Position numbers and translations under genes: made by a program
Source of the DNA: Mytilus edulis
Taxonomy: Eukaryota
Length of the DNA: 64,000 nt
NCBI RefSeq assembly: GCF_963676685.1
Contig: NC_092349.1
Location: 37,138,001-37,202,000 of the forward strand
Direction of reading: 5' to 3'
The notes under the pieces: model-generated
The model's input: the letters and a program-made list of their open reading frames with translations, nothing else
What the model was told of the DNA's origin: nothing
The model's database searches: none
Part shown: positions 30,080 through 34,967 of the stretch, in pieces
Layout of the letters: every line of letters begins with the position of its first letter
How positions within the stretch are numbered: the first letter of the stretch is position 1

Positions 30080-30122
30080 ATGTTGGCCTTTCTGTGTCTC
30101 GGATTTTTGACTGTTTCACAGG
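30080..30122 (+). CDS. Secreted Cys-rich prepropeptide, exon 1 (signal peptide MLAFLCLGFLTVSQ-A)
   Basis: AAACATG start, hydrophobic 14 codons and a phase-1 donor G|GTAAGC. Confidence 0.78.
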
Positions 30123-30474
30123 GTAAGCAAAATTCCTTTTCCTTTTTCGAAATCGAGAATAGTAAAAACCTGTCTTGGATTGAGTCTTTGTCTCTTAATT
30201 CCGGAACGAGTTGTGATTAATTTTTAAATGTGATGACGTCTTGTTCTCTATTCTCTGTTATTTTTGCATTCCACTGTTATAAAAAGGCGGAATATACCAA
30301 GTTGATATTCTGATGAGACACTCACCGCGCAACAGCAAAAATTTAAAGACCACAAAAAGGTCAACAAAACACTTTAACAATGGGTATAAATCCATTTTGT
30401 TTTTTGATATAGGATTTCGCTATATTTTTCTATAAATGAACGTTATCATATACTTAATAGAAAAATGAAATAAA

Positions 30475-32276
30475 ACTAGAGGCTCTCAAGAGCCTGTGTC
30501 GCTCACCTTGGTTTATTTGCATATTAAACAATGGACACAGATAAATTCATAACAAAATGGTCTTTTGGTGATGGTGATGTGTTTGTAGATCTTACTTTAC
30601 TGGACATTCTTGTTGCTACAATTATCTCTATCTATAATGAAGTGACCCAGTAAGTACAGTGGAAAATATTTTCTAAAAATCTACCAAAAATTTATGAAAA
30701 ATGTAAAAAATTGACTATAAAGGGCAATAACTCCAAAAGAGGTCAACTGACCATATCAGTCGTGTTGACTAGTTGTGAATCTTACTTTGCTGAACATTAT
30801 TGCTGTTTACTGTTTATCTCTATCTATAATATTATTCAAGATAATAACCAAAAACAGCAAAATTTCCTTAAAATTACCAATTCAGAGGCAGCAACCCAAC
30901 AACGAGTTGTTCTATTCATCTGAAACTTTCAAGGCAGATAGATCTTGATCTGATAAACAATTTAACTCCATGCCAGATTTGCTCTTTTTGCTTTGGTTTT
31001 TGAGTTATAAGCCAAAAACTGCATTTTACCCCTATGTTCTATTTTGAGCCATGGCGGCCATCTTGGTTGGTTGCCCAGGTCAACGGACACAATTTTTAAA
31101 CTAGATACCCCAATGATGATTATGGGCAAGTTTGGTTTAATTTGGCCCAGTAGTTTCAGAGGAGAAGATTTTTGTAAAAGATTACTAAGATTTACGAAAA
31201 ATGGTTAAAAATTGACTAAAAAGGGCAATAACTCCTAAAGGGGTCAACTGACCATTTTGGTCATGTTGACTTATTTGTAAATCTTATTTTGCTGAACATT
31301 ATTGCAGTTTACAATTTATCTCTATCTATAATATTATTCAAGATAATAACCAAAAACAGCGTAATAACCTTAGAATTACTAGTTCAGAGGCAGCAACCCA
31401 ACAACCAGTTGTTAGATTCATCTGAAACTTTCAGGGCAGATAGATCTTAACCTGATAAACAATTTAAATTCATGCCAGATTTGCTCTATATGCTTTGGTT
31501 TTTGAGTTATAAGCCAAAAACTGCATTTTACCCCTATGTTCTATTTTTAGCCATGGTGGCCATCTTGGTTAGTTGACCGGGTCAACGGACACAATTTTTA
31601 AACTAGATACCCCAATGATGATTGTGGGCAAGTTTGGTTTAATTTGGCCCAGTAGTTTCAGAGGAGAAGATTTTTGTAAAAGATTACTAAGATTTACGAA
31701 AAATGGTTAAAAATGGACTATAAAGGGTAATAACTCCTAAAGGGGTCAACTGACCATTTTGGTCATGTTGACTTATTTGTGAATCTTATTTTGCTGAACA
31801 TTTTTGCTTTTACAGTTTATCTCTATCTATAATACTATTCAAGATAATAACAAAAAAACAGCAAAATTTCCTAAAAATTACCAATTCAGGGGCAGCAACC
31901 CAACATAGCGTTGTTCGATTCATCTGAAATTTTTACAGCAGTTAGAAATTGACCTGATAAATAATTGTACCCCTTGTCAGATTTTCTCTAATTGCTTTGG
32001 TTTTTGAGTTATTAGCCAAAAACTGCATTTTACCCCTATGTTCTATTTTTAGACATGGCGGCCATCTTGGATGGTTGACCGGGTCACCGGACACAATTTT
32101 TAAACAAGATACCCTAATGATGATTGTGGCCAAGTTTGGTTTGATTTGGCCCAGTAGTTTCAGAGGAGAAGATTTTTGTAAAAGTTAACGACGACGACGG
32201 ACGACGCCGGACGACGCCGGACGCCGGACGCAAAGTAATGGGAAAAGCTCACTTGGCCCTTCGGGCCAGGTGAGCT
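30475..32276 (+). mobile_element. Helentron-type non-autonomous element (HINE-like) with three ~501-bp internal tandem units
   Basis: Subterminal inverted motif GCTCACCT / AGGTGAGC, (GAC/GACGCCG)n microsatellite and GC hairpin at the 3' end, inserted in an A run. Unit starts near 30711, 31212 and 31713. Confidence 0.8.
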
Positions 32277-32710
32277 TAAAATGGGGTCACCGTTAATTTA
32301 AGCTCACAATTTACCTCCTGAAGAAGCAAACATTTTTGTAAATGTCCTTTTTTTCTGTTGAACTAATAGGTGAAATAGAGATGATATCGAAATAAAATAT
32401 AGCACTAAATTACAGAAATCGCTTAAACTTTTAATGCCCCAAAATGTCATTTTGTCACCTAAGGGAGATAATCTGGAGCTTTTTCAATGACATAAACATT
32501 TTAAAGTCATCTCTGGCCAAACCGAAACGATTTGTTTGGTTGATTTTTGTACCGATTTATTATATGGTAATAACTAATAGTGTAATAAATAAATTTTGTA
32601 ATGAAAAAGCAAAAGTTTATTTTTTTCTAAAATGTTTGTACCCGCGAGCCTCCTTAATTAATAATATGTCTGTGCTAATTGAACATCTTCCATTCTTGTT
32701 TCTTTCATAG

Positions 32711-32839
32711 CTCTTTTCATTGGTGATCTAAAGTTACCATCAGATAGGCCACCACTATGCCTGATGTGTTGTGGGCCATCACCCTGTTGTAATACTTGTG
32801 GACTGGACAACGATCTGTTATCTCTGCTGAAACCTGCAG
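32711..32839 (+). CDS. Secreted Cys-rich prepropeptide, exon 2 (module 1: CLMCCGPSPCCNTC)
   Basis: Polypyrimidine TTCTTTCATAG acceptor, CAG|GTACGT donor, 129 nt, phase 1-1, open frame. Confidence 0.85.
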
Positions 32840-33106
32840 GTACGTGAAATATGTTTTCTCTAATTCTATGGAAATTTATCCCTTTACGAACCCATTGTAT
32901 ACAAAAAATTAATCAACGTGTGGTTGCTGGTGATCTCAAAAGATCATTGGAAAATTTTAAGGGTCATGACCTTTTTAGCTAACTGGATGAATCAAAATTT
33001 GATAACAGGTGTTAATGAAATTGACAACTTCGTGCAATGTGAAAGGCACTCGAAGGGATTTTTCGGTAGCAAAAAAAGAAAATGTCTTTTTAATCATTAG
33101 AGAAAC

Positions 33107-33269
33107 AGATTCTTACATAGTTACTCGTGGATTATCGGATTTATCCAATCTCGATAGTTAACTTATAAATTTTAAAGTCCTCGCCGAGGCGGCTCGGACT
33201 TTAAAATTGATAATTTAACTATCTCGATTGGATAAATCCGATAATCCACTGGTATCAATGTAAGAATCT
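33107..33269. repeat. Palindromic MITE-like hairpin (~75-bp arms)
   Basis: AGATTCTTACAT...GTGGATTATCGGATTTATCCAATC mirrored by GATTGGATAAATCCGATAATCCAC...ATGTAAGAATCT. Confidence 0.8.
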
Positions 33270-33741
33270 ACATATATCTATCATATCTGTATAGTTAAGA
33301 TTATATCACGCATATCTAAGATCCCGGCATCCATCACATAAGGGTATAGAGAAAATTGGCAGAATAAAACATATTAATTATAATACTCTGTGGTAGATAA
33401 GGTTATCTTTTAATTCCACAATAACAAAAACATGACGTGTGTGTATGTGTCTTTGTCTCTTAATTCCGGAACGAGTTATTGCTTATGGAGAGTTGTCTCA
33501 TCGGCACCCATACCTCACCTTCTTATATCAATATATGAACTAGAATATGGACATTAAGTGATAATAGATAAAAGTGCCTTTCATTTAACTGATAAACAAT
33601 TCGCGTCTTCTTATTTTTCTATTAGTGCAATAACGTGATGTAATTAGTTCAGCGGTAAAATCATATATTTGTAAACAAACGAATCAGTTTTTTTCGATGA
33701 ATTTACCTGCGGATTACATTCTTATATTTTTCCTATGATAG

Positions 33742-33879
33742 TTGGTACACAAGTAGACGGTAAACAAGTTGTTCCAGCCAAGAGATTCCTTGTAGATGAT
33801 CTATTCAATGAACAGAACCCTGGAACATGTCTTGACTGTTGTGGAGCACATCCATGTTGTCACGATTGTGGATTAGGAG
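33742..33879 (+). CDS. Secreted Cys-rich prepropeptide, exon 3 (KR site plus module 2: CLDCCGAHPCCHDC)
   Basis: TTTTTCCTATGATAG acceptor, GAG|GTACT donor, 138 nt, phase 1-1, same Cys spacing as exon 2. Confidence 0.85.
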
Positions 33880-34519
33880 GTACTCTTACATTATATAACG
33901 CTAAAATTAAGAACGGAAACGAGGAATGTGTCAAAGAAACAATAACCCGATCAAAGAGCAGAAAACAGTCGAAGGAGACCAAATGGTCTTCAATGCAGCG
34001 AAAAACTTCCGTACCCGGAACCGTTCTTCAGCTGTCCTCTAAACAAATGTATACTAGTTCAGTGATAATGAACGTCGTGTACTAAACTCAGAAATATACA
34101 CAAGAAACTAAAACTAAAATTAAAAATCATAGAAGACTAACAAAGATAAGGGGGAGTCTTTTTAACATTATAATGCTACGAGACCATGTGGAAGCTTTCA
34201 ACGAACCGGTAAACATCAAATCTAATCTCCAACTTTAAAAAAATTTAATATTAAAGGATATCTTCTTACTCATTTTTCATGGGATAAAGATTTTTAGTCA
34301 TCTTTATGCTTATATAATTTGAAGAAATGGCAAGAATCATATCTAACTACATAATGCATCCTCAATATATACATAAACGAAAACATTTTAAGGAAGATTG
34401 AACAACTTTTTGAAAATGCCAAAATATCAGGGGTAAACATTGGTAAATGGTTCTTCCCGTTTAGCTTACAATATTCAACATATATAACCGGATAGCATTA
34501 TTTTCAAAAATCAACTTCT

Positions 34520-34587
34520 CTCCTCCGGGACTCAAATCCGGAACCTCTGTGTTACAAGGCAGCGCTCTAACCGATCGAGTTGAGAAG
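34520..34587 (-). repeat. Degenerate tRNA-derived sequence (SINE head or tRNA pseudogene)
   Basis: Minus strand AACTCGATCGGTTAGAGCG (A-box-like) ... GGATTTGAGTCCC (B-box-like). Key positions are mutated. Confidence 0.45.
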
Positions 34588-34752
34588 TATTTTCCTATCA
34601 ACGCTTACGGCTGGATAAGTATCTACTACGTACTACGGGAAACAATCTCGTCACAATAATATATAGTAGTATTGTTCAAGGATTTAATAAGTCATTTCTG
34701 TGACAAATGTTCAGCGGAAATACAATACAATGAACCTGTTTTGTAATTACAG

Positions 34753-34967
34753 ATCTATTTGGCAACCATCATTATACACATGCGCCATATACGACAGTTG
34801 AACCTCACTCACCAGAGAAAGATGAAAGCTATGGAGACAAAGATCCATTATCAGGCCTTTCAGGAATTCATTTCGGCCCTCATATTGACCCAGTAATAGA
34901 CCCAATCCTTGGCCACCCAGATACTGACGTGGCTAAGTCATACTGGGAAACCCTTGGAAAGAAGTAA
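34753..34967 (+). CDS. Secreted Cys-rich prepropeptide, exon 4 (His/Asp/Pro-rich tail ending WETLGKK*)
   Basis: TTTTGTAATTACAG acceptor, phase 1, 71 further codons ending in TAA. AATAAA overlaps the stop. Confidence 0.78.

Follow-up and report, generated by a model that had tools for sequence, protein, structure and literature searches.

A 14-residue six-cysteine micro-domain, carried twice by a mussel precursor protein, recurs among inhibitor-type exons of the mussel genome, in rotifer and archaeal proteins and in bacterial RHS proteins

The described system closest to the gene reported here is the CRP-I group of Mytilus, in which at least 67 mussel-restricted genes encode a hypervariable mature peptide with the cysteine array C-C-CC-C-C, the modules being held in one exon (PMC4558851, PMC10138031). 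We analyzed a four-exon gene in a stretch of 64,000 nucleotides of Mytilus edulis DNA (assembly GCF_963676685.1, contig NC_092349.1, positions 37,138,001 to 37,202,000 of the forward strand; hereafter, the window), the product of which carries two copies of a 14-residue module with six cysteines, C-x2-CC-x4-CC-x2-C. Like CRP-I and multi-CRP-I, it has the layout of a mussel secreted prepropeptide with six-cysteine modules, sometimes several in a chain, and a dibasic site; unlike them, it has the array C-CC-CC-C, is conserved and has one module per exon, and its module occurs also in rotifers and prokaryotes. Furthermore, in CRP-I, Lys-Arg precedes the hypervariable mature peptide, whereas in the window gene, module 1 precedes Lys-Arg, and conservation is highest in the modules. 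Thus, differences in cysteine array, in conservation and in the arrangement of exons rule out membership in CRP-I, in agreement with a preliminary description of this locus, made from the sequence alone, which had set the gene apart by its array. The module is an apparently undescribed, mobile, cross-domain cysteine micro-domain of the small disulfide-rich secreted kind, and is far more widespread (rotifers, scallops, abalones, an archaeon, bacterial RHS proteins) than that description supposed.

The pattern C-x2-CC-x4-CC-x2-C has 2 matches in the six frames of the 64-kb window, compared with none in 40 simulated 64-kb sequences. Across 48 distinct modules, Gly6 and Pro9 are invariant, Leu occupies position 2 in 42 and is mostly followed by T, M, D or N, and the ending CxxCG is found in 46, a conservation that is partly imposed by the search patterns, given that one of the scans required Leu. 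The central spacer of four residues, which the preliminary description gives, holds for the mussel modules, whereas module 1 of the scallop proteins has six residues at this place.

Pfam searches with the window exons, the window gene product (P0004) and its scallop, rotifer and abalone relatives detected no family for the module, and neither did searches of NCBIfam. The PDB sequence search, in a library that lacks chains of fewer than 20 residues, returned one chance match (E 1.4), and none when the module alignment was the query. Six motif strings were found in no paper in a literature search that had figures, most subscription texts and bioRxiv supplements outside its coverage, nor did they appear in the supplements of PMC8398477, PMC5996578, PMC8557429 and PMC7333891. 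AlphaFold2 models had a mean predicted local distance difference test (pLDDT) value of 37.4 (precursor) and 53.7 (module), too low for a fold search, and the ESM Atlas gave no feature match and only structure matches with template modeling scores below 0.5, the query model being poor. No match to the module was found in phage and plasmid collections, and neither of the two pattern matches in viral contigs was judged real. The proposal that these are small disulfide-rich modules of an undescribed family is in line with these results.

Several known peptides resemble the module in part. Hepcidin has eight cysteines with a different spacing, and the resemblance noted in the preliminary description comes down to a superficial C-x2-CC-G stretch; membership is ruled out by the six cysteines per module and by the lack of a match in PDB at E≤10 or in Pfam at E≤1. 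Peptides of the guanylin and heat-stable enterotoxin type are very short, are cut from precursors and have CxxC at each end, and a similar crossed pairing is conceivable for the module; unlike these peptides, the module has another spacing and six cysteines in a symmetric array, and no PDB match (chains of fewer than 20 residues excluded), and a literature search combining mollusc and guanylin found no paper. Neither resemblance received support here. With respect to mussel defensin, mytilin, myticin and mytimacin, no Pfam family was above the cut-off for the window exons or P0004. Conotoxin frameworks V (CC-CC) and XI (C-C-CC-CC-C-C) likewise hold two vicinal cysteine pairs a few residues apart, but the exact six-cysteine array was not met as a framework in the accessible parts of three papers (PMC6471451, PMC4494067, PMC6891753), and no conotoxin appeared in any protein search; we reject membership. 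A toxin-like or defensive venom-type peptide would be compatible with the prepropeptide layout, the cysteine-rich mature part and the occurrence in RHS C-terminal domains; we nevertheless consider it very improbable, because there is no diversification and because, in the accessible parts of the literature examined, C-CC-CC-C was found solely inside longer conotoxin and teretoxin frameworks. Toxin-like roles, as entertained in the preliminary description, and mussel antimicrobial peptide-like ones fit poorly with a module 1 that, in a stretch covering residues 31-46, is 100% identical in 5 of 5 other Mytilus proteins, in contrast to the hypervariable mature peptides of CRP-I.

The window gene has the following layout, with all introns GT-AG and in phase 1 and a spliced product of 174 amino acids plus stop:

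30080..30122, forward strand: coding part of exon 1, comprising the start codon and the greater part of the predicted signal peptide (15 residues)
30123..32710, forward strand: intron 1, GT-AG, phase 1, with a high-copy genomic repeat inside (~30470-32280)
32711..32839, forward strand: exon 2 (phase 1-1), with the N-terminal extension, module 1 and the start of the linker
32758..32799, forward strand: module 1, C-x2-CC-G-x2-P-CC-x2-C, residues 31-44
33742..33879, forward strand: exon 3 (phase 1-1), with the linker, the dibasic site and module 2
33780..33785, forward strand: Lys71-Arg72, convertase site predicted from sequence, where the precursor would be cut
33828..33869, forward strand: module 2, residues 87-100
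34753..34967, forward strand: coding part of exon 4, with the acidic His/Pro-rich tail and the stop codon
34794..34835, forward strand: conserved tail motif T-x-E-P-[HQ]-S-P-E followed by [ST]-Y-G, common to scallops and other bivalve-like proteins
34968..35385, forward strand: 3' untranslated region, from spliced RNA contigs (X1 to 35385, X2 to 35333)

Reads from 4 of the 24 listed runs (one RNA by its record, three presumed RNA, with no DNA run as a control) were mapped on 29800-35400. Junction 1 (30122/32711) is covered in two of the four, X5 (one contig) and X24 (10 raw reads), and junctions 2 and 3 in all four, with 9 and 21 raw reads, respectively, in the run recorded as RNA-seq; the repeat in intron 1 attracts a very high depth of unrelated reads. 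The orthologous proteins of M. galloprovincialis (gene LOC143074638), M. californianus and M. coruscus share 84-96% identity with the product; the scallop gene is LOC110442750. The four-exon gene is thus real, spliced and expressed, the RNA and the orthologs together ruling out a chance frame or artefact, and the preliminary description was accurate on the exons, the phase-1 introns, the length of the product and the two modules with a dibasic site between them. The gene is not hidden, as had been claimed: the product is letter-identical to the 'uncharacterized' Mytilus edulis protein XP_071177335.1 (P0004) in RefSeq and no citing paper was found, so that it is annotated but unstudied; more generally, the literature search found no mention of twelve accessions. 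In protein searches of the mussel genome, the two-module gene is single-copy, the window gene alone being found.

The product has, by sequence, the hallmarks of a neuropeptide or peptide-hormone precursor, namely, a hydrophobic N-terminus and a dibasic site between modules. The signal peptide, also called in the preliminary description, is predicted from the hydrophobicity of the first 15 residues (grand average of hydropathy 1.84) together with the alignment, and is followed by module 1, Lys71-Arg72, module 2 and the acidic His/Pro-rich tail. The predicted products are one of about 55 residues, near neutral, and one of 101 residues with nine His and a net charge of -12, so that the peptides can be called acidic, as originally proposed, in the case of the C-terminal product, to which the acidity is confined, and not in the case of module 1, which is neutral. 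Compared with the scallop orthologs, the modules are 69-81% identical (75-81% for module 2), in contrast to 15-33% for the linker and the tail, and the position of Lys-Arg is shifted along the linker. Within the tail, T-x-E-P-[HQ]-S-P-E is unchanged between mussel and scallop; its S-x-E may be a phosphorylation site, and an acidic Tyr may be a sulfation site. Two unnamed bivalve-like proteins, P0012 and P0011, are tail-only fragments that retain E-P-H-S-P-E, and P0012 has a repeated His/Asp/Pro unit akin to the mussel tail.

Among 1.84 billion representative sequences, a search found 7 matches, including two-module precursors of the rotifers Adineta steineri and Brachionus plicatilis; alignment of the mussel precursor with that of Brachionus (34% over 101 residues) puts the signal, module 1, Lys-Arg and module 2 in register. 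A profile search returned 25 matches among 875 candidates of 51-317 residues, all 25 containing the module; the 19 that are named come from mussel, four scallops, an ark clam, three abalone species and four rotifer species, and no further phylum was found among the profile matches, which is weak evidence of absence. Two-module precursors are present in scallops, the ark clam and rotifers, and one abalone protein has two modules as well. In 11 of the 15 two-module proteins examined, Lys-Arg lies between the modules, followed by Pro in one of them. Rotifer module 1 has an extra cysteine pair. The existence of single-module proteins rules out an obligate two-chain, insulin-like product. Abalone P0045 is labeled as a keratin-associated protein, a label that is merely automatic, and abalone P0047 has a Myticin-prepro match over the signal and the module that is below the cut-off (19.7 vs 28.5 bits). 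Abalone P0046 and P0047 both have, behind a Lys-Arg site, a variant second module, C-x2-C-x2-C-G-P-x-P-CC-x2-C, which suggests that the cysteine array can rearrange.

These precursors raise the question of a spiralian peptide hormone, neuropeptide or pheromone, whereby dibasic processing would release disulfide-rich peptides that act on a receptor. The single-copy status of the gene, the conservation of the modules compared with the linker and tail, the mussel-Brachionus collinearity, R-x-K-R directly ahead of the module in rotifer P0037, P0039 and P0040, and a Gly and basic run directly behind it in abalone P0049, which suggests amidation, are all consistent with such a role. The mussel modules themselves, however, are not bracketed by cleavage sites, which would give products of about 55 and 101 residues; supplements to scallop and oyster ganglion neuropeptide surveys and to a spiralian survey contain none of the motif strings; and the copies in inhibitor-type genes and in prokaryotes would be left unexplained. 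We regard a hormone-like role as unlikely.

The module is not confined to such precursors: in the mussel genome, it is an exon-shuffled unit found among Kunitz, WAP, antistasin and Lustrin exons. DNA patterns revealed seven more loci with the module, on C8 and C11, in all of which the sixth cysteine is complete, even though one of the search patterns left it free. Six of the seven are exons of 51-57 nucleotides in phase 1-1, in which a GTAAGT donor lies four bases past the last cysteine, and the seventh lacks this donor and reads into a stop. In one own-genome pattern search, 4 of the 13 matches lacked Pro and were set aside, compared with 10 matches for the reversed-pattern control; for another DNA pattern, 10 of the 14 matches were repeats. 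A same-strand Kunitz, WAP, antistasin or Lustrin-type exon is present in the 10-kb region at 6 of the 7 loci vs 0 of 20 fixed control regions; Pfam places the Kunitz, WAP and antistasin neighbors above the cut-off and Lustrin just below, and their splice phases are compatible with those of the module exons. Two abalone gene models, independent of the mussel loci, unite antistasin repeats and the module, with the module C-terminal to the repeats in the same chain (P0050 and P0051, the antistasin match being above the cut-off in P0050 only). Around the mussel loci, there is also an unclassified Cys/Pro-domain exon between the antistasin exon and the module exon (L015:4765-4867, forward strand; no Pfam match), a WAP-like exon on the opposite strand in L015, and more cysteine-rich exon-like frames at L074:6335-6448 and 9772-9921 and L014:2212-2325, two of which were scanned and had no Pfam match.

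In common with the WAP (SLPI, elafin), antistasin and Kunitz types, the module is small, disulfide-rich and predicted to be extracellular, shows phase-1 exon shuffling and occurs in the same loci or chains; unlike these, it has just 14 residues and another cysteine spacing, its inhibitory role is putative, and across 23 aligned members no WAP, antistasin or Kunitz profile matched the module itself, the antistasin matches of P0050 and P0051 lying elsewhere in the chain. Our tentatively favored reading, based on association, is that of a minimal, disulfide-rich inhibitor of serine proteases, freed by Lys-Arg cleavage and with Leu in the P1 position. This reading is suggested by the module traveling with inhibitor domains, by its apparent exposure on an archaeal surface protein (see below), and by its start, Cys-Leu-Met or Cys-Leu-Asp, which resembles the Leu72-Met73 site of SLPI, these being the inhibitory residues (PMC10975521). 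The elafin loop, for comparison, reads Cys-x-Met, then Pro-Pro. Under the inhibitor scheme, we infer that the precursor would be secreted and cut at Lys71-Arg72 into two products with one 14-residue six-cysteine module each, that each module would fold as a three-disulfide micro-domain, and that it would bind and inhibit proteases of the chymotrypsin, elastase or subtilisin type, with the conserved Leu after the first cysteine as the predicted P1; at a guess, the acidic His/Pro-rich tail might tether or modify the second module.

A number of points weigh against an inhibitor. All functional support comes from association, folding having given no confident model, and no inhibitor-type exon accompanies the window gene in its 64 kb. 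The signatures used for the control regions were devised after the test loci had been seen, two of the loci (L075 and L076) are near-duplicates, and for one C11 paralog examined in 4 runs, no module-inhibitor splice was found among the joints listed, with a bin depth over the module exon of at most 0.31; the mapped RNA gave no sign of splicing for any exon of this paralog. WAP, Lustrin and antistasin domains also have matrix or antimicrobial roles, and a conserved P1 and a gap of only two residues between the first and fourth cysteines of the module are atypical of canonical inhibitors; the conservation of the Leu is itself partly a product of search design. Finally, inhibition leaves the position of the module at the start of RHS C-terminal domains unexplained.

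The cysteines could alternatively form a disulfide cross-linking tag, by which secreted proteins are linked into mucus or matrix, or a metal-binding motif that chelates Zn or Cu with the aid of the His-rich tail. Six cysteines in 14 residues, making up two CxxC pairs and two vicinal pairs, the almost constant CxxCG end (partly search-selected), the nine His of the C-terminal product and the Lustrin-type exons among the neighbors are compatible with this possibility, but a bifunctional cross-linker would be split by cleavage between its two modules, and the even cysteine count, along with the added pair in rotifer module 1, fits closed intramolecular disulfides; we judge it quite improbable.

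A pattern scan of 185,579 prokaryotic genomes yielded 29 loci, 3 of which are in long frames and top-ranked by the animal-derived profile; the other 26 GTDB loci, together with 3 of the 10 from a metagenome scan, were judged chance matches, being in short or stop-containing frames or off-frame opposite another gene, and two of the discarded metagenome matches (L052 and L060) still score 5.3 on the animal profile. One of the three genomic loci encodes an archaeal protein (from a 0.9-Mb genome) that consists of a hydrophobic N-terminal anchor, the module and an Ig-like domain (Pfam match below the cut-off); given its placement between the anchor and the Ig-like domain, the module is probably exposed on the surface. 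The neighbors are archaeal RNA-polymerase subunit genes, which rules out animal contamination of the contig. The other two loci are Planctomycete RHS proteins. Of the seven metagenome loci judged real, one encodes the archaeal protein just described, another a second anchored protein, of unshown origin, and a third a precursor of rotifer-like type; the remaining four are RHS contigs, with two different C-terminal domains between them. Across four distinct RHS C-terminal domains, the module begins 2-13 residues past the end of the core, the core model being above the cut-off in three of them. In prokaryotes, the module is rare, each of the three genomes checked having one copy. In RHS proteins L030, L054, L055 and L057, a dockerin-like insert lies close to where the core ends, and the C-terminal domains are rich in cysteine (11-16 residues); the gene that follows encodes a hydrophobic product, possibly of the immunity type, with a CxxC motif.

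The prokaryotic copies bear on yet another possibility, that of a surface-binding or immune micro-domain for a widespread microbial or matrix ligand, which would anchor inhibitors in animals, aid attachment in the archaeon and target RHS cargo. It is the sole reading to cover all four settings, that is, free peptides, inhibitor-type proteins, the anchored archaeal protein and RHS proteins. Against it, the modules are neutral or acidic and have no conserved aromatic or basic patch, the window gene lacks the expansion and hypervariability described for mussel defense peptides, and no ligand can be named; such a function appears doubtful. Whichever the function, module identity reaches approximately 90% among the small-genome archaeon, the Planctomycete RHS proteins, rotifers and molluscs, and 14 residues are too few to separate transfer from convergence.

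The rest of the window contains a 556-codon open frame (15958-17625, reverse strand) with a B-box zinc finger above the Pfam cut-off and weak beta-propeller matches, a TRIM-like gene; retroelement-like frames (597-3287, reverse strand) with an endonuclease at about the cut-off and a zinc knuckle by Pfam; and a reverse-transcriptase-like fragment at about 57038-57572, judged by eye. There is also a hydrophobic exon-like frame, possibly from a membrane protein, without a Pfam match (50119-50547, reverse strand), a long five-base tandem repeat (57600-58100) that produces open frames of repeated SSQVK, and a dispersed inverted repeat pair (7548-7800 and 14026-14283), 85% identical over 264 bases.

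The present analysis brings to light a family of disulfide-rich domains whose cysteine array had no counterpart in Pfam, NCBIfam, PDB or the literature searched. Somewhat more tentatively than the inhibitor assignment itself, we suggest that this micro-domain of 14-16 residues is among the smallest self-contained protease-inhibitor or targeting domains in nature, that it crossed domains of life or arose repeatedly, and that spiralians use it as a shuffled exon of inhibitor cocktails and also as free peptides from a two-module precursor, this precursor being older than the split between rotifers and molluscs. The near-identity of so short a domain in archaea, bacteria and animals poses the question of transfer vs convergence in an acute form, and the location of the module may hint at the role of the start of RHS C-terminal domains. 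At 14 residues, the module is amenable to direct synthesis and assay. If it is an inhibitor, it would offer a natural scaffold of minimal size, and the defense or mucus chemistry of molluscs and rotifers would gain a new component; if a ligand, it would reveal a spiralian signaling system overlooked by neuropeptide surveys.

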